This document shows positions 1-63,537 of a DNA stretch of 64,000 nt, in pieces. The notes under the pieces were generated by a model. The model was given only the letters and a program-made list of their open reading frames with translations, had not been told where the DNA came from and did not search any database. Every line of letters begins with the position of its first letter. Positions within the stretch are counted from its first letter, which is position 1. This DNA comes from a virus, in IMG/VR virus record IMGVR_UViG_3300032087_005453, positions 32,001-96,000 of that record; one strand, 5' to 3'. The position numbers and the translations under genes are program-made.

Positions 1-2154
1 GTATAGATTCTTTATTCCATGTTTAAAAGCATAAATCTGATCTTTAATCAAAACACTCAAAGGAATATTGCCATTGTCGTAATGACTGTAGTTATAGTAA
101 AGATTTAAGCTAATTGACATATCTACAAACTTCTGGATAACAGAAGCAATATCAATCATACCTTTATTGCTGGTCATTTCCCAAGCTTGAGTATAATATT
201 TTTTCTTGCTGGAAAAGTTTGGAACCAACTGCTTAAGGACTCCGTTTTTAGCTTTCTTGTATGACAAAAGACTTCTTACAGGCTCAATACCATTAGTACT
301 GTTTTGGATAACAGAACTACTTTCACATGGCATAATTGCTGATAAAGTGGAGTGTCTTAGGCCAAATTCCTTAATTCTTCCACGAAGACCTTCCCAATCC
401 ATTTTGTATTCAACCTTAACAAGATCGTCAACAGACTTATTGTACCAATCAATGGGGAGAAGTCCATCAGCATATTTAGTTTCATTGAATTTAGGGCATG
501 GTCCTTTTTCTTCAGCGAGCTTGCACGATTCACTAATAAGGTTATACTGGATCTCTTCCATGATCTCATGAACAAGAACGAGTGCCTGTGGATCATCGTA
601 TGTTAGTTTATTTTTAGCGAGAAATCCCGCAAGGTTGGTGACACCAATACCAAGAGATCTACGATTCTTTGTAAAGTTTTCTCCAGCTTTAACTGGATAA
701 TCTTGATAATCAATGATTGCCTCAAGAGAACGAACTGCTGCGGCACATGCTGTTTGAATTGCTCTACTACCCGTCATTTCAATTAAGTTAATTGCCGATA
801 GCATACAAATACCGATCTCTCCCTCTTCATCTTCAATCGAAGTGATTGGTTTTGTTGGGTGGAGGATTTCCTGACAAAGATTACTCATCCGTACAGGAAC
901 ATTCCAAGAACTGTGTTCATTGGCGTTGTCAATATTCATAGCATAGATTCTACCAGTTTCGAGTCGCTCACGACTGTAAATCTCAGCAAGCTTGACGGCA
1001 GGAATCTTCTTTCGGAATAGTAGACCTCTTGCGTTTTCGTACTTCTTGTACAGTTCTTCAAACTTTTCATTATCGCCAAATGCCTCATAAAGATCTGGCA
1101 CTTCATTTGGACTGAACAGAGAAATTGTTTCATTAGCGATCAGTCTCTCATAGAATAGCTTACAAAACTGCACAGAGTAATCAAGCTTACGAACTCTATT
1201 GTCGTCAGTTCCAGCATTGTTCTTTAGCTGAACAACATCTTGAATCTCATAATGCCAAAATGGAATGTGAACTGTCGCACTCCCGCCGCGAATACCGTTT
1301 TGAGATGTAGACTTAACAGCACTCTCAAAATTCTTCAGATATGGAATGAGTCCGGTGTGAATGACTTCGCCACCACGAATCGGAGAATTAATTGGGCGAA
1401 TACGACCAATATTCAGTCCGATACCAGCACGGCGAGCCGTGTAGCGACCAACAGCGTGTACTGAAGAGAAGATACTGTCAAGATCGTCGTCAACATCAAC
1501 CAAAACACAGCTTGCGAACTGACGAATGGAAGTTCTAACTCCAGCCATGATCGGAGTTGGAAGGTTGACTTTGAACGTTGAGTATGTATCATATGCTTTT
1601 TTGACAGACTTAACATCGTCAAACAGACACATAGCAATTAGCATATATGCAATCTGTGGTGTTTCGTAGATAACTCCGGTGGATCTGTTCTTGACAAGAT
1701 ACTTGTCAACCATCTGCTGAAGACCGGAATATGTAAACAGATCATCTCTATCATGTACAATGTGCGATCCAATCTTTTTGATATCGCCCTCGCTCCACTT
1801 CTCTAGAATCTGAGGATCATAGATTCCATTATCGACATTCAACTGAATTTGATGTAGAAGACTGGGAGGTGTTGTTGCGTGACCCCAAACATCTTTTCTG
1901 AGGTCCATATTCAGCAACTTGGCGGCAACGTATTGGTAGTTTGGATTATCTTCTGAGATTAGATCGCTAGAAGACTTGATCAAGATCTTATGAATATCCT
2001 TAGAGCTAATGCCATCAAATAAAGAGAGTCTTGCATTCATTGCAATTTCAGAAAACGACACTCCGTTTATTCCGTCAGTCGCCCATTCTAAAACCTTATG
2101 GATCTTGTCAACATCGTAATCTTCAAGTGATCCATTTCTCTTCTTTATTTGCAT
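1..2154 (-). CDS. nrdA: Ribonucleoside-diphosphate reductase class Ia alpha subunit with N-terminal ATP cone (3' end outside window)
   Basis: Hand translation from ATG at 2154: MQIKKRNGSLEDYDVDKIHKVL (ATP cone), PTPIMAGVRT..QFASCVL, catalytic SNLCQEI, RRSLGIG, AIMPCESSS..NSTNGIEP. Frame is open to position 1. Not in the ORF track. Confidence 0.97.
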   Translation of the reverse strand, partial: MQIKKRNGSLEDYDVDKIHKVLEWATDGINGVSFSEIAMNARLSLFDGISSKDIHKILIKSSSDLISEDNPNYQYVAAKLLNMDLRKDVWGHATTPPSLLHQIQLNVDNGIYDPQILEKWSEGDIKKIGSHIVHDRDDLFTYSGLQQMVDKYLVKNRSTGVIYETPQIAYMLIAMCLFDDVKSVKKAYDTYSTFKVNLPTPIMAGVRTSIRQFASCVLVDVDDDLDSIFSSVHAVGRYTARRAGIGLNIGRIRPINSPIRGGEVIHTGLIPYLKNFESAVKSTSQNGIRGGSATVHIPFWHYEIQDVVQLKNNAGTDDNRVRKLDYSVQFCKLFYERLIANETISLFSPNEVPDLYEAFGDNEKFEELYKKYENARGLLFRKKIPAVKLAEIYSRERLETGRIYAMNIDNANEHSSWNVPVRMSNLCQEILHPTKPITSIEDEEGEIGICMLSAINLIEMTGSRAIQTACAAAVRSLEAIIDYQDYPVKAGENFTKNRRSLGIGVTNLAGFLAKNKLTYDDPQALVLVHEIMEEIQYNLISESCKLAEEKGPCPKFNETKYADGLLPIDWYNKSVDDLVKVEYKMDWEGLRGRIKEFGLRHSTLSAIMPCESSSVIQNSTNGIEPVRSLLSYKKAKNGVLKQLVPNFSSKKKYYTQAWEMTSNKGMIDIASVIQKFVDMSISLNLYYNYSHYDNGNIPLSVLIKDQIYAFKHGIKNLY

Positions 2155-2179
2155 TGTACGACTTTCAAAATATAGGGAT

Positions 2180-2208
2180 AAAAAATACCAGCAGATTGCT
2201 CCGCTGGT
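2180..2208 (-). terminator. Intrinsic terminator
   Basis: Minus strand ACCAGCGGA-GCAA-TCTGCTGGT stem with GNRA tetraloop, followed by ATTTTTT. Confidence 0.8.
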
Positions 2209-2235
2209 TAAGTTGTACTAAGTTTTATTATGCTG

Positions 2236-2520
2236 TCAACTAATCTGTTCGTAAGTAAATGGAATATCTGGAAAGTTGTCTAATTCCAAAACCCCACCTT
2301 TGTCGGAAAAATGTACACCAGAAAGCTTGATAGAAAATGATATAATTTTCTTGATTGAAATAACAGGCTGGTTTTTTGGAAAAGAGACAACGACTGATGT
2401 ATCATTTTTTTTAATATTGATGTCAGTATCTTTATCACATTTTATCTTAAAACCTCTTACTGAAAATCCATCCTCAGAAAATATTTGATCAACTATTTTG
2501 AATATTTCATCAAATGTCAT
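2236..2520 (-). CDS. Hypothetical protein (94 aa)
   Basis: ATGA overlap with the upstream thioredoxin gene; last gene before the terminator. Confidence 0.7.
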   Translation of the reverse strand: MTFDEIFKIVDQIFSEDGFSVRGFKIKCDKDTDINIKKNDTSVVVSFPKNQPVISIKKIISFSIKLSGVHFSDKGGVLELDNFPDIPFTYEQIS

Positions 2521-3257
2521 TGCTGATACGCCTTGAGTTTATTCAATACAAATTCAGCAGTACATCCTCCAACCCAAAATTCTTTGAATTGCCCATTAAC
2601 CTCTATTACAAACTGTGGTATGCTAGTGCTCTTAGTTAGTTTTACATTTTCTGACCATCTTTTTTTATCTTTATCAATATCTACGACCTCATAATTAGAA
2701 AAACTTTTTCTGACTTTAGGAAGTTCGTTTTTCTTAAAAACCTGACAAGGCCCACACCAAGAAGCAGAAAATATAACCAACTTAACTTTTGCTTTTAGAA
2801 GTGCATCTAAATCTCTCATTAGATTAGATTCTATAGTGGCTACATCCTTTTCACATCCACAATTAACACAGTCACATCGGCCATCAGTGCAATTACATGT
2901 ACCATTATTATAGCACTTGCAGTCAGATGATTCACTGGTATTTTGGTCTGAAGATCCACTTTTGACGCAATTACATATACCATCACCTTCGTTAAAACAC
3001 TGACATGGCGTTTTATGTCCGTCGCCATGAATCATGACTTTACTTCCGTCGCAGTCACATTTAGTTACTGGATCTGGTGTAGGAGGATCTGGTGTGTCTG
3101 AAGATTCTGTTGATTGAACAATAAATGATATATAACCTTCATTTTTAACTTCGTCAAACTGAAACACATTTCTGTCGTCAGCATTTAATACAAACATATC
3201 AAATGGAATAAAAGAAATTAACAGTAGGACTAATATTGTTATAGATTTTCTATTCAT
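2517..3257 (-). CDS. Exported or membrane-anchored thioredoxin with Cys-rich, metallothionein-like middle region
   Basis: N-terminal hydrophobic stretch (MNRKSITILVLLLISF), PDPPTPDP linker, repeated CxC motifs, C-terminal FSASWCGPC and SIPQF (cis-Pro) thioredoxin motifs. Confidence 0.85.
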   Translation of the reverse strand: MNRKSITILVLLLISFIPFDMFVLNADDRNVFQFDEVKNEGYISFIVQSTESSDTPDPPTPDPVTKCDCDGSKVMIHGDGHKTPCQCFNEGDGICNCVKSGSSDQNTSESSDCKCYNNGTCNCTDGRCDCVNCGCEKDVATIESNLMRDLDALLKAKVKLVIFSASWCGPCQVFKKNELPKVRKSFSNYEVVDIDKDKKRWSENVKLTKSTSIPQFVIEVNGQFKEFWVGGCTAEFVLNKLKAYQQ

Positions 3258-4171
3258 TAGATTATCCTTGTGTTTAGCTTATTAACTCTTTTTTCGAATC
3301 CATCATAACCACTGTACGCCCAACAATCACCAGTTTTTAGAATTTTTCTTTCGATATCATCTGCATCAACCCAGAAAGATCCATCCGGTTGATTATTTCT
3401 TTTTGGACCTCCATTCCATTTTCCCCAACTATTTTGTACTAAAACGCCAGGTCTTTTGTAAGCATCGTCAACACCAAGAATACACATTTGATGATGCCAT
3501 GTACCTTGAGGTCTAGCGAATCCCTCTGAATCTCTTCTTGATGAAAATCCTTGGCTACTTGCTATAGTAACAGCATAGCCATTAGCAATTAAATCTCTAA
3601 CTTCATTATAGCTTCTTACTTGAGATACCGTAATAACCGGGTGGTCTTTGACAATTTCTACAAATTCTTGAGGTAACTTATATCCTTTTCTACCCCAAGT
3701 TCTGGCTTTACTTCCTGAATAATTTGTTAAATCAATATTTCCATATTGTGCTCTTGGCAAGGCACCATATTGATTTACATATTTTGCAGCCCAAATACCA
3801 AATGAGCCATCACTATTACCAAGTCTACCTTTGCCAATAACGTTTCTACTACCCCAATAAATATCTTCAGTTGATGTTCTAGCAACCCACTTTTCGTTTT
3901 CACCCTTTATAAAAATATCCACACATTTGATCGCATCAACAGCATATGCCGCACCATGAGCAACACAGTCGCCAATAGTTTGCTTTCTTATTGGAAAACT
4001 TCCGGAAACCTTTTCGATGATATCGTACAGTAACACCTTTTTGTTTTTGCCAGAATCCTTTTTTATTTGAGAATGAATATCCGAAAAAACAGGAAATGGG
4101 AGGCTTTCCATCGCCTGCTCCACTTCCTGCGGGTCATCAATCCATCCACATAAATCGGATAGGTCACTCAT
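3257..4171 (-). CDS. Papain-like (C1 family) cysteine peptidase
   Basis: QTIGDCVAH (oxyanion Q and catalytic C), WHHQMCILG (catalytic H), QNSWGKW (catalytic N). Confidence 0.88.
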   Translation of the reverse strand: MSDLSDLCGWIDDPQEVEQAMESLPFPVFSDIHSQIKKDSGKNKKVLLYDIIEKVSGSFPIRKQTIGDCVAHGAAYAVDAIKCVDIFIKGENEKWVARTSTEDIYWGSRNVIGKGRLGNSDGSFGIWAAKYVNQYGALPRAQYGNIDLTNYSGSKARTWGRKGYKLPQEFVEIVKDHPVITVSQVRSYNEVRDLIANGYAVTIASSQGFSSRRDSEGFARPQGTWHHQMCILGVDDAYKRPGVLVQNSWGKWNGGPKRNNQPDGSFWVDADDIERKILKTGDCWAYSGYDGFEKRVNKLNTRII

Positions 4172-4604
4172 ATTTTGTAGCCTCCGCTAAGTCTTTAAAT
4201 ATCTTAGCAAATTCTTTTCTTTCTTGGTCGGTTTTGAGATCTTTGGGTATATCATACTCTACGCTTACCAAATAATCAGAAACAGCATCCGTAAAATCGG
4301 AATACTTATCTCTTTCCCAACCATAACTTGATTGTACTCTGCCAAGTATCGGGTCGAATTGAGAAGTATTAACCATTGTCTCACATTTTAAGAGATATTC
4401 TGCACCACCAGAAAATAGTTTATGAATTAACTCTTTATCTTCTTTAGAATCTATTTTAGTAAATTCTTCTTGTACGAGTTTTAATTCATTACTAGCATCA
4501 TTCTGAATTAGCATTGCTTGATCTGACTTCATGAGCCAAACCGAGCCAGCTATTATCATGGCAGCAACTGAGATAACTAATGAAGTTGAATTATTTTTAT
4601 CCAT
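4164..4604 (-). CDS. Single-pass membrane or exported helical protein
   Basis: N-terminal TM segment (LVISVAAMIIAGSVWLM); overlaps both neighbours. Confidence 0.7.
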   Translation of the reverse strand: MDKNNSTSLVISVAAMIIAGSVWLMKSDQAMLIQNDASNELKLVQEEFTKIDSKEDKELIHKLFSGGAEYLLKCETMVNTSQFDPILGRVQSSYGWERDKYSDFTDAVSDYLVSVEYDIPKDLKTDQERKEFAKIFKDLAEATKYE

Positions 4605-5004
4605 CTACATTTACCTCTTTTTCATTTTTTGGCTCAACAGCAATGCTTTTTGCTTTAAAAAGGAAGTTGTTGAGGTCAATAACATTACTCAAAGCTTCTT
4701 TAGAAGCTAACTCATCCGCCCTCGTTCTTAAATAGGAGAGACACATGAAGTCAATAAGATCTTTGTTGTCGCTATTGAGTAGTTGCTCAATTGAAGTAAT
4801 TTTAGTCATTTTCACTTTGTCCTTTTTAATGCTAAATAAACTTTTAAAACTAGCAGATGTTAGCAATATATATATTCCACCGACTCCAGCAATACCCATC
4901 TGAACAAAATACTGAATATCAGCAACATCTTTGTCTACCAACTGCCAATATCCAGCCATTCCCCCAGATACTAGAATCAATGCAAGTCCTATCAAAGCAT
5001 TCAT
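4597..5004 (-). CDS. Membrane protein with two TM helices
   Basis: Two hydrophobic segments near the N-terminus and a charged C-terminal region. Confidence 0.7.
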   Translation of the reverse strand: MNALIGLALILVSGGMAGYWQLVDKDVADIQYFVQMGIAGVGGIYILLTSASFKSLFSIKKDKVKMTKITSIEQLLNSDNKDLIDFMCLSYLRTRADELASKEALSNVIDLNNFLFKAKSIAVEPKNEKEVNVDG

Positions 5005-5008
5005 TCAA

Positions 5009-5224
5009 TCAACCTTTCTTTGTGTTGTCCTTAATCCATTTAATTAGAGAATCAAGACCAACTGAAATAATTGGAACAACAAGCATACCTGTAGCACCAA
5101 GATCAAGATGTCCAAGATTATCAGCAACATATGTTAATGCTGCCGCACCTCCGACAAGTACTGCATTTTTTACTAAATTGGCTACATCCGCTTTGTTTAA
5201 ACTAAAACTTTTTGAATTTTCCAT
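5009..5224 (-). CDS. Small holin-like membrane protein
   Basis: 71 aa, two hydrophobic helices, basic C-terminus (KWIKDNTKKG), as in class II holins. Confidence 0.6.
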   Translation of the reverse strand: MENSKSFSLNKADVANLVKNAVLVGGAAALTYVADNLGHLDLGATGMLVVPIISVGLDSLIKWIKDNTKKG

Positions 5225-5234
5225 TTTAACCCCT

Positions 5235-5744
5235 TTACTGATCTAAACCTAAAACTAATATTTTGTAATTTACACCAGAACCTTGATCGTTCAACTCAAA
5301 AGCCTTATTGCTAGCAGTAACAACGGTTCCAGTGTACACATCATTGTAAGAAAAAGAAGAATATGGTTTTACAACAAGATTACCAGACCCACCATTGAAA
5401 ATATTTGTGAAAGCATTCGTGCCCGTGGCGGTAACTGTAAAATCATATCCTTCTGTGGTAGAATCATTATAAACTGAGAAGTGTTTCACTCCAGAAAAGT
5501 TTATATTTTGACTCGAACCAAAAGTAGTTTGACTTATTGCTTGTAAATCAAACTCGACCGTCCCGCCAGATGGCAGAACTCCAGTTATAGACACTCCGTT
5601 AGTTACTTGATTATCTCCACTGCCATAAGTATAGGACGAAGATAAATTCTTTGAATCCGTCAAAGAAGCAGATTCTCCAGCATTCGTCTCTGTTAGAGTG
5701 AAACTGGACTTATTATTATATGTTGCTGTTATAGATAGAGCCAT
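5235..5744 (-). CDS. Hypothetical beta-rich protein, possibly virion-associated
   Basis: 169 aa, rich in S/T/G/N, with several SG/TG dipeptides like the structural proteins. Confidence 0.6.
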   Translation of the reverse strand: MALSITATYNNKSSFTLTETNAGESASLTDSKNLSSSYTYGSGDNQVTNGVSITGVLPSGGTVEFDLQAISQTTFGSSQNINFSGVKHFSVYNDSTTEGYDFTVTATGTNAFTNIFNGGSGNLVVKPYSSFSYNDVYTGTVVTASNKAFELNDQGSGVNYKILVLGLDQ

Positions 5745-5745
5745 A

Positions 5746-6300
5746 TTATTGTTCTTTCAATTCTATGGTTCCAACTGAAATTCCATTGGGAATTCCAATG
5801 ACCGTTACGTTAACGTTAACTTCTTTACGTGACTTTGTCAAGACTGAACAAGAAATATATCTTTCAAATATTTGAGTATCAGTGGGGTCATTTATTTTTG
5901 AAATAAACTTTTGACGATGTGTATCTTTTAAAGCGTCTGGAATTAATGAATGCAATGATTTACCAACTATTTCTGATTTGGTATAACCTAACATTTCCAA
6001 CGCTCCATTTGACCATGCAAATATTTTACCTTCATAGTCTACCCCAATAAGAGTATTATTTGAAGTATTGATTACCTTTTTTAATAATTCTTGATCATGT
6101 CTATTATCTATTTTATCAATACATTTTTTAGTCAAAGATATTTCATGAGACAAATCTTCTTGCAATACTTGCGTTTTTTGCAATATAGTGGATACATTTT
6201 TTATAAGTACGATGTTTAACGCAGATAAAATACCAAACGCAAAAATTAGACTAAATACTAATATATTTACGACATAATTATTGTTGTGGCTTCGAGACAT
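5746..6300 (-). CDS. Membrane-anchored PAS-domain protein with no output domain
   Basis: TM helix, then coiled coil, then PAS signature IGVDYEGKIFAWSNGALEMLGYTKSEIVGKSLHSLIP. ATG at 6300 follows an AAGGA RBS. Confidence 0.8.
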   Translation of the reverse strand: MSRSHNNNYVVNILVFSLIFAFGILSALNIVLIKNVSTILQKTQVLQEDLSHEISLTKKCIDKIDNRHDQELLKKVINTSNNTLIGVDYEGKIFAWSNGALEMLGYTKSEIVGKSLHSLIPDALKDTHRQKFISKINDPTDTQIFERYISCSVLTKSRKEVNVNVTVIGIPNGISVGTIELKEQ

Positions 6301-6562
6301 TTTCAATCCTTATCTGCAATTTTTCTAATTGATTTTGAATCTCCATATTCTGCTCTAGATTTTTTCTATACATTTCATCAAAATCATCATCACGTCGTTG
6401 TATATACTGCAACCATTCCCCTCGCTCACTTTGATGCCTTTCTTCTATTGACGGTATGTGTTTTACCACCAAATACCAAACAAGAGCACCAAAACCACCA
6501 GCGGTTGCTAATTGCACGAGAGGTTCAATCCAAGATGTAAAATCACTAGGATTATCATTCAT
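6278..6562 (-). CDS. Single-TM plus coiled-coil protein (BhlA/UviB holin-like architecture)
   Basis: TM segment (LVQLATAGGFGALVWYLVV), then a charged coiled coil; GGAGG RBS. Confidence 0.55.
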   Translation of the reverse strand: MNDNPSDFTSWIEPLVQLATAGGFGALVWYLVVKHIPSIEERHQSERGEWLQYIQRRDDDFDEMYRKNLEQNMEIQNQLEKLQIRIENVSKPQQ

Positions 6563-6573
6563 AACTTGCCTCC

Positions 6574-6654
6574 AAAAAACAACCCTAGACTCCGGATGAA
6601 GCTGTGAATTTAGATCTAGTCTAAATAACTTTCTAAATCCGGATATCTAGGGTT
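6574..6654 (-). terminator. Long multi-stem hairpin plus U tract (terminator or attenuator)
   Basis: Nested inverted repeats AACCCTAGA/TCTAGGGTT, TCCGGAT/ATCCGGA and TTTAGA/TCTAAA, followed by GTTTTTT on the minus strand. Confidence 0.7.
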
Positions 6655-6668
6655 TCAATGATAATTAC

Positions 6669-7295
6669 TTACGCACCGGAACGGGCTTTGTAATCATCTT
6701 GTTTTGCATCAATCGCACCGTACATGTAAGCCAATTCACCAGGAATGGACTTGTATGTTACGAATTGACCTTGATCTACAGCATCAGATGCATTGTTTGT
6801 AGGCAGCTTGAATGTAATATCTCCAGTAGAAGGTGGAGTGCTCCAGTTTGTTCTCTGACCTGAGATTCCAACACCTCTCCAATATCCGGAGCGATGTGCA
6901 GTTGTGAGCAAAGCACCTTTAGCACTATCAGTAACATTATTCTTAGGACGATTTCTTGGAATACCATTGATTTGAAGAACAGTATTTGATTGATTGTTGA
7001 TCTTAGTTGTAACAGTTCTGATAATAAACTGATCTTGATCATAAGCAAATGTACCACCGGTATCTGCTTTTTGAGCACTATATGCGTGTGCCGCACCAGA
7101 TGCTTCAAGAACTAGAACCCTTCTTTCTCTACCATCAATAGCATTGTCTGTCAGATTGAAGGTTTGAGTGATAGGCCCAGCAGTTGTGTCAGTGGCAGAT
7201 GTAATACCAATGACTGTTCCACCATCAGCTTTTTCTGTTGGTGAAGAGTTATCACCAGTTGTTCCGTAAATAATTGTGTTTGGGAGTAAAGCCAT
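6669..7295 (-). CDS. Hypothetical protein, probably late/virion (208 aa)
   Basis: T/G/A-rich; preceded by the GGTGTATA motif and a GAAAGGT RBS. Confidence 0.65.
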   Translation of the reverse strand: MALLPNTIIYGTTGDNSSPTEKADGGTVIGITSATDTTAGPITQTFNLTDNAIDGRERRVLVLEASGAAHAYSAQKADTGGTFAYDQDQFIIRTVTTKINNQSNTVLQINGIPRNRPKNNVTDSAKGALLTTAHRSGYWRGVGISGQRTNWSTPPSTGDITFKLPTNNASDAVDQGQFVTYKSIPGELAYMYGAIDAKQDDYKARSGA

Positions 7296-61530: not shown

Positions 61531-63537
61531 TTAGTATAATCCATTCATAGCTTGAGTAAACCAGTTAGGACCACTAAATGTAGCGTCTTCTTTGTTTTTA
61601 CCACTTCCATATTGTGCTGCGAACCCACCATAAGAATTATAACCAGGAGTTTCTTCCGTCTTGAGATTTCTGGCCGCCATATTTGCCATTAAAAGGGATG
61701 AATAGCGGTCCTTTCTCATTCGAGATTTTTTACCAACCCCAATTTTAACTTCAGGAGTATCCCATCTTAATCTACCATTAGCACTTTCAGTAACTTCGAT
61801 TAGAGATAGTTCGTTTTTTAACTCTTCTATTTCCATAACACAATCTTCAAGTGTGTCATATAATCTATCGTTTGCTTTATCTTGCTCAATAGAAAGTCCG
61901 ATAGTAATGGGGTCAAACCTTGGGAATAAAAGGATCTTATCTTCAAAGTCTTTTCTCAAACCATGATTAGCGTCGGAGTACCAATCATATCTAGCGAATT
62001 GACACATCTCTAAAATGTGAAGACCTTGTTCGTCATCTGTTGGTTGTGATTTTTCTGGATTGATTATAGGCCAAATAGCGACTTCACCAGCTTGAATTTG
62101 GTTAGAATCATGTAGTGCTTCAGCAACAGCATATCCACCACCCTGAGCGTCCATAGCGATGTGTACTATATTAAACAATCCCATTAACTCCCGGATCTTA
62201 CGAGCACAATAGCTATAGAAGTTATTCTCCTTGGTCAAACCTTTCTTTACTCGCTCGGTATGGTCTTTTCTTGTTGTTGTCCAGCAATGAACAATCCTTC
62301 TGTGATCAGCATGAAGCTCAAGTACCACAATACTAAAATTATCCACCTCAGAAGCAGGGTCAATAGCCATGAGATACTTTTCATTCTTATTTCCCTTTAA
62401 AATAGGATCAAAATATACCTCCCCACTTGCTATCTTAACTGGTTTTAAATCAGTACCCACACAAGCTTCGATCAAGCTTCTTTTAAAAAACCCCTGACTA
62501 TCTTTAGTGAATACAGCCCCAAATTCCATTAGATAAATACCATTATGAACAGTTGCTTTGGATCTTGCAATTTGTCCTTCATCCATGAACCCTTTAGGAA
62601 CCATGTCCACCGGAATTCTAATTATGGAGTAATCATCCCATTTAAAAGATGGAGGTACATCCTCACCGTTGAAGACATTGTTCGATATAGCCTTTTTATC
62701 ACCTTTGGTCTCTATCGTCGTCTTCCATTTTTTCCAATATTCCGCGAAATGGTTAAAGTCATAATAGGCAGTACCCGATAGAATAATCTGGTTGGACCTG
62801 CCTTGCTCCATTGCATCTGTTTTGAATAGTTCAGACACATCCACACCTAATTCTTCCGCTTTTTTCTCGGCGGCTAGTCTACGAACATTATCAATAGGAG
62901 AAGATGAAACTGCTGCGAAACCTGCAATGACATTTTCAAAGATTTCTCTGGACATACTCGCAAATTCGTCTGCGATAATATCATTTGCTCGCTGTCCACG
63001 AATCTTTTGACCATCACCGATGGGGAGTGCAGAAATGGTACTTCCATTCAAGGTTAGTCTACACATATCCACATCGCGTCTAGGACCGCTACTGCTGTCG
63101 CACATGTCTCTTAAAATCGGAGCATTCTTCCAAATATTCTCCATATAATCATACAGATACTTCGACTGTCGGAATGCGGCACCAACGACGACTATCTTTC
63201 GATTAGGCATCAATATGGCTCGTAACATACAGTACAATGAAAGGATAAATGTTTTTCCTAAACCGCGAGATCCAACAAGCATCGGAAACTTCTTGTTCCA
63301 CATTTCTTTGAGAATAAGTGCCTGCATGGGCAACAAATCGACATTGAGAACGTGCTTACAAATAAACGAAAAATAATCCGGGTTGATAAACAAGCAAGTT
63401 AGTCGTTTATAAAACTCATCTGGGTCATCGGTCACAAGCCGCTCAAATGGATTGATAACATATCTATCGTCAACACTAATATTGAGCCAAGCATTATTTA
63501 GCTCTTGTATTAACTCTTTACTTAATTTGCCGCTCAT
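61531..63537 (-). CDS. terL: Terminase large subunit
   Basis: LLPMQ, Walker A GSRGLGKT, IRGQRA, Walker B IIADEF, nuclease AIDPAS and KDRYSS. Confidence 0.93.
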   Translation of the reverse strand: MSGKLSKELIQELNNAWLNISVDDRYVINPFERLVTDDPDEFYKRLTCLFINPDYFSFICKHVLNVDLLPMQALILKEMWNKKFPMLVGSRGLGKTFILSLYCMLRAILMPNRKIVVVGAAFRQSKYLYDYMENIWKNAPILRDMCDSSSGPRRDVDMCRLTLNGSTISALPIGDGQKIRGQRANDIIADEFASMSREIFENVIAGFAAVSSSPIDNVRRLAAEKKAEELGVDVSELFKTDAMEQGRSNQIILSGTAYYDFNHFAEYWKKWKTTIETKGDKKAISNNVFNGEDVPPSFKWDDYSIIRIPVDMVPKGFMDEGQIARSKATVHNGIYLMEFGAVFTKDSQGFFKRSLIEACVGTDLKPVKIASGEVYFDPILKGNKNEKYLMAIDPASEVDNFSIVVLELHADHRRIVHCWTTTRKDHTERVKKGLTKENNFYSYCARKIRELMGLFNIVHIAMDAQGGGYAVAEALHDSNQIQAGEVAIWPIINPEKSQPTDDEQGLHILEMCQFARYDWYSDANHGLRKDFEDKILLFPRFDPITIGLSIEQDKANDRLYDTLEDCVMEIEELKNELSLIEVTESANGRLRWDTPEVKIGVGKKSRMRKDRYSSLLMANMAARNLKTEETPGYNSYGGFAAQYGSGKNKEDATFSGPNWFTQAMNGLY

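Follow-up and report, generated by a model that had tools for sequence, protein, structure and literature searches.

A candidate phage lysis cassette centred on a papain-fold cysteine peptidase in an uncultured marine virus

Can a phage open its host with a papain-type cysteine peptidase where an endolysin would be expected? To our knowledge, every tailed phage studied so far leaves its walled host by means of a peptidoglycan hydrolase. The question is raised by a block of genes at positions 2236-6562 of a 64,000-nucleotide stretch of viral DNA (the window; bases 32001-96000 of the single 107,436-bp IMG/VR contig IMGVR_UViG_3300032087_005453, here G000), which comes from an uncultured marine phage. 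An earlier note, made from the letters of the window, had described nine tightly packed genes between two terminator-like hairpins, and had proposed lysis by reduction and proteolysis of a protein envelope layer. The layout stands as described: nine co-oriented open reading frames (ORFs) on the minus strand (g45 to g53, Table 1) fill the block with intergenic gaps of -29 to +10 nt, and both hairpins are present. We give an even chance to the reading of this block as a lysis cassette whose effector is g47, a peptidase of the C1A papain family, in the place of the conventional endolysin. The contig is linear according to IMG/VR, has a GC content of 35-40% and a CheckV completeness of 68%. It encodes ribonucleotide reductase (RNR), a DnaE-type polymerase, DnaB, RecA, PhoH, sigma factors and sugar-nucleotide enzymes, and also giant structural proteins, the terminase TerL and a ClpP/S49-type head maturation protease. 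For comparison, 76 IMG/VR loci with peptidase homologues were collected and were compared by tblastn and jackhmmer.

Is g47 a papain-type enzyme at all? Residues Gln64, Cys69, His227 and Asn247 (the last within Asn-Ser-Trp-Gly) are invariant in 34 aligned homologues and follow the canonical Gln-Cys-His-Asn order, so the intact catalytic set that the earlier note had read from the window is found across the family. The AlphaFold2 (AF2) model, with a predicted local distance difference test score (pLDDT) of 87.4, has a papain fold. Foldseek placed it next to xylellain (3ois, E = 9e-11), and comparison by VIA gave the same protein a Z of 21.9 with a root-mean-square deviation of 3.3 Å over 239 aligned residues, while the zymogens of cathepsin B, papain, cathepsins L and K and Der p 1 matched at Z 19-20. 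These zymogens align from residue 1 of the model onto the end of their propeptide and the mature enzymes only from residue 37-42; therefore residues 1-40 of g47 look like a short pro-region, as in xylellain. The score against the Pfam family Peptidase_C1 (PF00112) is 14.2 bits, below the cut-off of 20.7 (E = 0.048). In the ESM Atlas clusters neighbouring g47, PF00112 is assigned to 44-98% of the members; the clusters obtained were all viral hypothetical or C1 ones. By its modelled fold, g47 is a true C1A papain-fold peptidase, and its activity is predicted. The peptidase is the most conserved gene of its neighbourhood, with homologues falling into more than 1,100 clusters at 90% identity and 1,658 clusters at 50% identity. 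Many of these homologues are split by one to three inteins (Hint + LAGLIDADG), which lengthen the ORFs to 660-1,207 aa. One insertion site is at about residue 65-69, before the catalytic Cys, and another at about residue 229, beside the catalytic His; the inteins were seen at loci L001, L002, L031-L034, L040 and L052 and in proteins P0121, P0126, P0140, P0157 and P0164. Insertion at the catalytic Cys and His is a sign of strong constraint on those sites, and at the sequence level the 1,658 clusters at 50% identity together with the many intein invasions count as strong constraint on the peptidase. A caging disulfide of the kind known from P1 Lyz was considered for g47 and rejected, as Cys69 is the sole Cys that is invariant in the 34 homologues.

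Does the phage have a conventional endolysin besides this peptidase? A total of 16 Pfam families of peptidoglycan-hydrolase and peptidoglycan-binding domains were searched in six frames with hidden Markov models (HMMs), the family set differing between genomes. They included Phage_lysozyme (PF00959), Amidase_2 (PF01510), SLT (PF01464), Peptidase_M15_4 (PF13539), Peptidase_M23 (PF01551), GH108 (PF05838), NlpC/P60 (PF00877), GH19 (PF00182), Hydrolase_2 (PF07486), PG_binding_1 (PF01471), VanY (PF02557), GH25 (PF01183) and CHAP (PF05257). The genomes were G000, four close relatives (including G001, a 162,690-bp relative that is 98% complete and has the same cassette) and distant carriers of the peptidase, among them G008 (59.6 kb, 100% complete) and G010 (93%); of the three near-complete carriers G001, G008 and G010, one is only 39 kb long. 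In 15 of the 16 families no match was obtained, and in G000, G001, G008 and G010 there was none above cut-off; the sole match to any family was M23 in G003, below the cut-off (E = 0.011). Pfam and PHROG scans of 91 further ORFs of G001 gave no lysin among the matches listed. The CHAP and NlpC/P60 models had no match in the searched genomes, and g47, being of the C1A type, carries no recognised peptidoglycan-hydrolase domain. The earlier note had seen no muramidase, amidase or M15/M23 motif in the window, and this now extends, at the level of family cut-offs, to the whole contig and to the relatives; a canonical holin-endolysin pair was found neither elsewhere in G000 nor in the carriers that are at least 93% complete.

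Conservation of the gene order in relatives, which the earlier note had put forward as a check, is clear. The order g54-(g51)-g50-g49-g48-g47-g46-g45 is kept in 43 loci on related viral contigs, with the core g50-g49-g48-g47-g46-g45 syntenic among them and peptidases 57-75% identical. Of the most distant lineages (31-33% identity), L072, L074 and L075 have the Cys-rich domain of g46 downstream of the peptidase as well. In four other lineages (L047, L048, L049 and L066) the peptidase gene lies 1-2 kb upstream of TerL (phrog_675, ~1e-80), with the portal gene next where checked (L047, L049); the spot just upstream of the terminase is the classical location of a lysis cassette. The N-termini of distant homologues are also informative. 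Twin-arginine translocation (Tat) signals (RRxFLK-like, e.g. MYRRDFLK... and MDRRNFLK...) start P0175, P0185, P0189, P0192 and P0235, and a transmembrane (TM) anchor with a Pro-rich linker starts P0205, P0216, P0230, P0256 and P0265, both types preceding the conserved GW(V/I)xDP start of the domain. Since distant homologues carry such signals or anchors, the family probably acts outside the cytoplasm.

How would an enzyme of this kind be held at its place of action? The stop codon of g48 overlaps the start of g47 by 8 nt, and g48 encodes an exported protein whose homologues have variable N-termini (a lipobox in 6 of 26, a signal peptide or anchor in the rest) and a 105-aa helical domain common to all. 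Co-folding of g47 with residues 38-146 of g48 gave an ipSAE of 0.82 as against 0.11 for the best control; in the calibration of the tool, 58 of 80 solved complexes and 2 of 110 mismatched pairs scored as high as this. Between runs, at least 82% of the contacts are shared, and the pLDDT of the partner is at least 86. The predicted interface consists of the last eight residues of g47 (297-304; window positions 3257-3283, minus strand), which are disordered in the model of the monomer. This KLNTRII-type tail is almost invariant within the clade and is present in 34 of the 39 loci with a g48 homologue. The prediction supports binding of the tail by the four-helix domain of g48. Clades without a g48 homologue have other conserved peptidase tails (e.g. 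GFPARRINW[SL]I), which suggests that docking partners are lineage-specific. As for the fold of g48 itself, Foldseek returned nothing below E = 0.77 and the best VIA match had a Z of 5.4, the noise level for helical bundles; FliS-type tail-binding chaperones among the VIA matches at Z 4.6-5.3 lie within this noise and are a curiosity only.

The next gene, g46, carries the thioredoxin. The WCGPC thioredoxin of the earlier note held up, with a putative signal peptide: Pfam Thioredoxin (PF00085) matches at 6.3e-8 and 33 bits (cut-off 23.5), the PDB profile matches are thioredoxins and a-domains of protein disulfide isomerases (thioredoxins at 1e-10 to 1e-18), and a hydrophobic segment at residues 6-24, conserved in the homologues, predicts export by hydropathy. 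Between the two parts lies a Cys-rich knuckle (CxCxG-x(4-5)-HGDGHKTPCxC, residues ~66-96), of which Cys67, Cys69, Gly71, Gly80, Thr83 and Cys85 are invariant in 21 homologues, and which may bind metal or resemble a DnaJ zinc finger. In 11 of the 43 close loci and in most distant lineages there is no thioredoxin domain, and the Cys-rich N-terminal domain persists. In a clade with 46-49% peptidase identity, a short signal-peptide thioredoxin (WCPPC or WCGPC) is encoded directly 3′ of the peptidase gene. Because the thioredoxin domain is dispensable in many relatives, the simpler role for g46 would be to service the catalytic thiol of the peptidase, with Cys69 kept reduced in the periplasm, rather than to reduce the host envelope. 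In one distant lineage (L068:10882-11202, plus strand) the peptidase gene is followed by a gene for a lipoprotein that has two DnaJ-type CxxCxGxG motifs, an exported Cys-rich partner of other design.

Are there proteins by which a cytoplasmic enzyme could be released? The earlier note had counted two holin-like proteins, and a holin-like topology is indeed seen in g50 and g53, and also in g49; assignment to a holin did not follow, as g45, g48, g49, g50, g51, g53 and g54 match no holin or lysis family in Pfam, PHROGs or NCBIfam. The main candidate is g50, with hydrophobic segments at ~19-36 and 43-61, the C-terminus KWIKDNTKKG and a gene three positions upstream of g47. Its core KNAxLVGxAAxLTY...DLG...LVVP is conserved in 27 distinct homologues of 68-90 aa. 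In size, TM segments, charged C-terminus and a gene near the candidate lytic enzyme it resembles a holin, and from this topology it may form holes. No homologue of g53 was found in 78 loci, so it is lineage-specific; proteins of similar architecture (TM segment and helical tail) follow the peptidase in L054, L060 and L091. Two more TM proteins had been listed, and hydropathy agrees that g48 (N-terminal anchor) and g49 (two weak TM segments, syntenic in 32 loci) are membrane proteins. Neither of them looks like a spanin: g48 of the window has no lipobox and is a predicted four-helix bundle, g49 has two TM segments, and there is no embedded or overlapping small lipoprotein gene.

Taken together, we infer the following course of events. 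The peptidase g47 would be made in the cytoplasm without a signal peptide and would stay latent through its short N-terminal segment resembling a pro-region. Late in infection g50, with g49 and g53 as helpers or regulators, would permeabilise the inner membrane and let g47 escape, and the membrane-anchored PAS protein g52 may supply a timing input to this step. In the periplasm, the KLNTRII tail would dock into the four-helix domain of the membrane- or lipid-anchored g48, and the exported Cys-rich thioredoxin protein g46 would keep or make Cys69 reduced in this oxidising compartment. The peptidase would then cleave peptide bonds that hold the envelope together, most likely the stem or cross-link peptides of peptidoglycan, or else proteins that tether the wall or an outer layer. 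On a wider view, C1A papain-type peptidases may form a new class of phage lysis effectors, latent or exported by Tat signals or anchors, docked by their tail on an exported protein and serviced by a Cys-rich or thioredoxin protein, with at least 1,600 clusters at 50% identity in uncultured marine, freshwater and hot-spring phages that have no known muralytic domain; this wider proposal is tentative, and we rate its chances at slightly less than even. The peptidase family is absent from the 50,697 GenBank phage records of INPHARED, where blastn of the region and tblastn with three diverse members of the peptidase family gave no match, and among which G000 has no DNA relatives or close protein relatives. 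Full-text literature searches retrieved no account of phage lysis cassettes of the papain type, nor of phages of planctomycetes. If the proposal is true, phage lysis would gain a new enzyme class, and possibly a new envelope target; the envelope biology of hosts without cultured phages would become more accessible, and there would be a marker gene for this group of hosts and viruses and a new scaffold for lytic enzymes. Thanks to the predicted docking of the tail on a helical bundle and to the pro-region, a few recombinant proteins would suffice for a direct test of the idea.

Several points weigh against a lysis cassette. The contig of the window is only 68% complete, and as the search covered 16 families in six frames and the scan matches that were listed, a divergent or novel muralytic enzyme could be missed. 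No spanin pair is evident in the block, and the holin-like proteins carry that label by size and hydropathy, matching no holin family. The contact between g47 and g48 is a model prediction made with our own alignments, and the co-occurrence of the tail with g48 is confounded by descent, since it holds within one clade. In G000, the cassette lies between glycosyltransferase and nucleotide-metabolism genes, co-oriented with the replication genes and away from the late structural block. C1A enzymes classically cut L-polypeptides, and we know of none that cuts peptidoglycan stems containing D-amino acids. Finally, annotations of one membrane-anchored branch of the peptidase are found in Thermogemmata fonticola, a cultured planctomycete, and in metagenome-assembled genomes (MAGs) of Gemmataceae (the cluster of P0216, including WP_194537195.1). 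On the metagenome contigs L093 and L094 (GC 0.60) the neighbours of this branch are genes for glycerol kinase and amylomaltase, no cassette partners are present, and the gene is cellular and chromosomal, not part of a prophage. As the Gemmataceae homologue stands alone among housekeeping genes, the peptidase family is not intrinsically lytic.

Four other explanations have to be weighed. The one closest to the earlier note assumes a host with a disulfide-cross-linked protein envelope, as reported for some members of the Planctomycetes-Verrucomicrobia-Chlamydiae (PVC) superphylum, where thioredoxin reduces the envelope and the peptidase digests it with no attack on peptidoglycan. From that proposal, a lysis-type, envelope-directed cassette without a canonical endolysin is retained on the grounds of synteny, Tat signals and anchors, position near the terminase, lack of a muralytic domain and a separate prohead protease; reduction and proteolysis of a PVC envelope is not retained, because the thioredoxin domain is often absent and the link to PVC bacteria is cellular only. 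It is true that exported reductase-type thioredoxins (WCGPC or WCPPC) adjoin the peptidase in two separate clades, that no muralytic domain rises above its family cut-off, and that the fold of g47 is nearest to true proteases, including Cwp84, the C1A processor of a bacterial S-layer protein (Z 17.4). The cellular homologues in Thermogemmata and the Gemmataceae MAGs and a DUF1501 gene of the phage, from a family that is abundant in Planctomycetes, also speak for it. Yet the Gemmataceae homologue is the only taxonomically solid link to PVC bacteria. As a guide to the host, the named MAG matches (Crocinitomicaceae, Aureispira, SAR202 and Rubrivivax) are mutually inconsistent, which suggests mis-binned phage contigs; the contig scan found only three MAG contigs, from unrelated phyla, and the only names obtained from two clusters were Thermogemmata/Gemmataceae and one Xanthomonadales MAG. 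Loci without the thioredoxin domain still have the peptidase and the Cys-rich domain. Moreover, Planctomycetes are now known to have peptidoglycan, so that a wall-cutting step would still be needed in such a host, and cultured marine planctomycetes mostly have a GC content much higher than that of this phage. We therefore consider this explanation unlikely.

Could the cassette instead be an accessory to lysis? Here the peptidase docked on g48 would act in a spanin-like manner, cutting the tethers between the outer membrane or an outer layer and the wall, and an unrecognised enzyme encoded elsewhere would degrade the peptidoglycan. Lipoproteins among the g48 homologues, the predicted hold of g48 on the peptidase tail, the lack of any other visible spanin pair and the preference of C1A enzymes for protein substrates are all consistent with this, as are the many ORFs of G000 and G001 that belong to no family. 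However, the searched lysin families were not found in three carriers that are at least 93% complete, so each carrier would need its own novel muralytic enzyme, and no gene of the neighbourhood is more conserved than the peptidase, which suits a primary effector more than an accessory. An accessory role is accordingly improbable in our judgement.

The third explanation takes the cassette out of lysis and makes it an early or middle expressed module that remodels the envelope or periplasm for superinfection exclusion, receptor removal or host takeover, with the peptidase trimming surface or periplasmic proteins of the host. The location agrees with this, upstream of RNR and replication genes on the same strand and far from the structural block, and the TM-PAS sensor suggests signal-dependent control; the stand-alone anchored peptidase of Gemmataceae implies a non-lytic role for that branch. 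Against these, g47 has no export signal of its own and could not meet the exported g48 and g46 without membrane lesions, its gene lies near the terminase in the four other lineages, and no other lysin was found above family cut-off. The chances of remodelling are low for this phage. That the peptidase matures phage proteins (of the virion, or Cys-rich giant tail proteins) next to unrelated membrane proteins, an alternative which the earlier note had itself raised for virion proteins, is very improbable even with maturation proteases being common in phages, because a canonical ClpP/S49-type prohead protease (g105, phrog_94, 1.4e-23) already adjoins TerL, for which reason g47 was rejected for that role, and because the cassette lies outside the structural block, Tat signals or membrane anchors are present on homologues, and the conserved, translationally coupled neighbours are exported or membrane proteins.

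How does the block, read as a lysis cassette, compare with known systems? Like the S-R-Rz/Rz1-type cassettes of lambda, it is a compact coupled block with a two-TM protein with a charged C-terminus, a hydrolase without a signal and further membrane or exported proteins, and like holin-endolysin cassettes it lies just upstream of the terminase in other lineages. Unlike them, its hydrolase has a C1A papain fold and is not a glycosidase, an amidase or of the M15, M23, CHAP or NlpC/P60 type, no holin or spanin family is recognised, and there are extra conserved partners (g48, g46, the beta proteins g45 and g51 and the TM-PAS protein g52). With xylellain (3OIS) and the cathepsin B zymogens (Z ~20) g47 shares the Gln/Cys/His/Asn set, and its short N-terminal segment aligns with the stretch of a propeptide that covers the active site, but identity is only 13-19%, PF00112 is below cut-off, there is neither a signal peptide nor a conserved disulfide, and g47 has a conserved C-terminal tail, predicted to dock, and the context of a phage cassette. 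As in signal-arrest-release endolysins such as P1 Lyz, some homologues are anchored in the membrane by their N-terminus and thiol chemistry plausibly activates a catalytic Cys in the periplasm; those endolysins are lysozymes, whereas g47 has no second conserved Cys for a caging disulfide and its redox partner would be a separate exported protein. The clan CA endolysin domains (CHAP, NlpC/P60, mycobacteriophage LysA) likewise show phages using a papain-like Cys-His core against wall peptides, though g47 has the full two-lobe C1A fold and no fused wall-binding domain; weak structural matches of g47 to LysA proteins (E about 2e-3, marginal) and to phage proteins named peptidoglycan-binding were also obtained. 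Staphopain-staphostatin operons similarly encode a papain-like protease together with small partner proteins, but g45, g51 and g48 have no sequence relation or demonstrated fold relation to staphostatins, and an inhibitor role of g45 or g51 is only an idea. Baculovirus V-CATH, a fragment of which is among the fold matches of g47, is a viral cathepsin zymogen that dissolves the host at the end of infection; it differs in acting on insect tissue. Cwp84 of Clostridioides difficile is a C1A fold at a bacterial cell surface, but it is a cellular, secreted and wall-anchored maturation enzyme with no lytic role and a different domain architecture.

Table 1. Predicted genes and hairpins in and around the block, in window coordinates.
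Feature	Position	Strand	Description	Basis
Closing hairpin	2187..2208	(-)	terminator-like hairpin closing the block; 9-bp stem, 5 GC pairs, loop of 4	stem followed by ATTTTTTAT (T-run)
g45	2236..2520	(-)	94-aa soluble beta-rich protein, always last cassette gene	homologues in 42 loci, always downstream of g46
g46	2517..3257	(-)	signal-anchored protein; Cys-rich knuckle, then WCGPC thioredoxin domain	Pfam, PDB profiles, hydropathy
g47	3257..4171	(-)	C1A papain-fold cysteine peptidase, 304 aa, no signal peptide	invariant catalytic set, AF2 fold
g48	4164..4604	(-)	exported protein; N-terminal anchor or signal peptide and 105-aa four-helix domain	TM segment 7-25; AF2 pLDDT 85.7
g49	4597..5004	(-)	135 aa; two weakly hydrophobic N-terminal helices and soluble C-terminal part	homologue h141 (G001), TM 1-19, 33-51
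g50	5009..5224	(-)	71 aa; two TM segments, Lys-rich C-terminus (class II holin-like topology)	hydropathy
g51	5235..5744	(-)	169-aa soluble Ser/Thr/Gly-rich beta protein travelling with the peptidase	phrog_22694 (unknown function), 1.2e-4
g52	5746..6306	(-)	membrane-anchored PAS protein: TM 15-33, linker, PAS domain, no output domain	PAS_9, TIGR00229
g53	6278..6562	(-)	94 aa; one TM segment (15-33) and charged helical tail; first gene after the hairpin	hydropathy
Upstream hairpin	6581..6654	(-)	long three-tier hairpin, ~75 nt	centroid -32.6 kcal/mol, z = -3.85, 0/200 shuffles fold as well
g54	6669..7295	(-)	208-aa soluble Thr/Ser/Gly-rich protein upstream of the hairpin	in 34 loci, ~-2.1 to -2.6 kb from the peptidase

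Both hairpins have the form of an intrinsic terminator, with a GC-containing stem and a U-tract, and termination is predicted for both at the level of sequence. The closing hairpin sits just upstream of the gene for the large subunit of RNR, and the upstream hairpin runs directly into the U6-GGAGG-N6-ATG of g53, the first gene of the block. A blastn search for copies of the hairpin elsewhere in the genome gave only a 20-nt match of 90%, and the idea of a dispersed hairpin was dropped. The nine genes between the hairpins are not a uniform unit, as g52 and g53 have no sequence homologues in the relatives and the syntenic core reaches g54 beyond the upstream hairpin.

Among the remaining genes, the TM-PAS protein described in the earlier note is g52, which is above the cut-offs of both PAS_9 (1.5e-8, 35.3 bits, cut-off 27) and TIGR00229 (1.7e-11, 44.3 bits, cut-off 22.9); the one counterpart seen in relatives is a weakly similar TM-PAS protein in the corresponding position of G001 (22% identity, E = 7e-4). 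The homologues of g45 share an invariant FPD..Y motif, and the protein has no match in Pfam, PHROGs or NCBIfam and only chance-level matches in a PDB profile search; that it could inhibit or chaperone the peptidase in the cytoplasm is speculative. In relatives, genes like g51 lie within the cassette before or after the peptidase gene, with two tandem copies upstream of it in L072-L076 (31-33% identity). For g51, PDB profile matches were likewise at chance level and the ESM Atlas gave only viral hypothetical or C1 clusters; a chagasin-like inhibitor motif was looked for by eye and rejected, as the spacing does not fit. Both g51 and g54 are Ser/Thr/Gly-rich beta proteins, and both begin with MAL.

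Some features of the contig at a distance from the block may be recorded here. TerL (window positions 61531-63537, minus strand; phrog_2, 7e-23) is ~27% identical to the terminases of Bacillus siphophages (phage Basilisk-type), and the adjoining ClpP/S49-type protease is at G000 bases 95534-96145 (minus strand). The DUF1501 protein is encoded outside the window at G000 bases 2109-3386 (plus strand; Pfam 2.8e-56); it has more than 4,000 close metagenome relatives, the best 120 of which are all phage-like, and two paralogues in G001. At the left end of G000, where ARAGORN called no two-piece tmRNA, tRNA-Gln(TTG) and tRNA-Leu(TAG) genes lie within bases 113-273 (plus strand).

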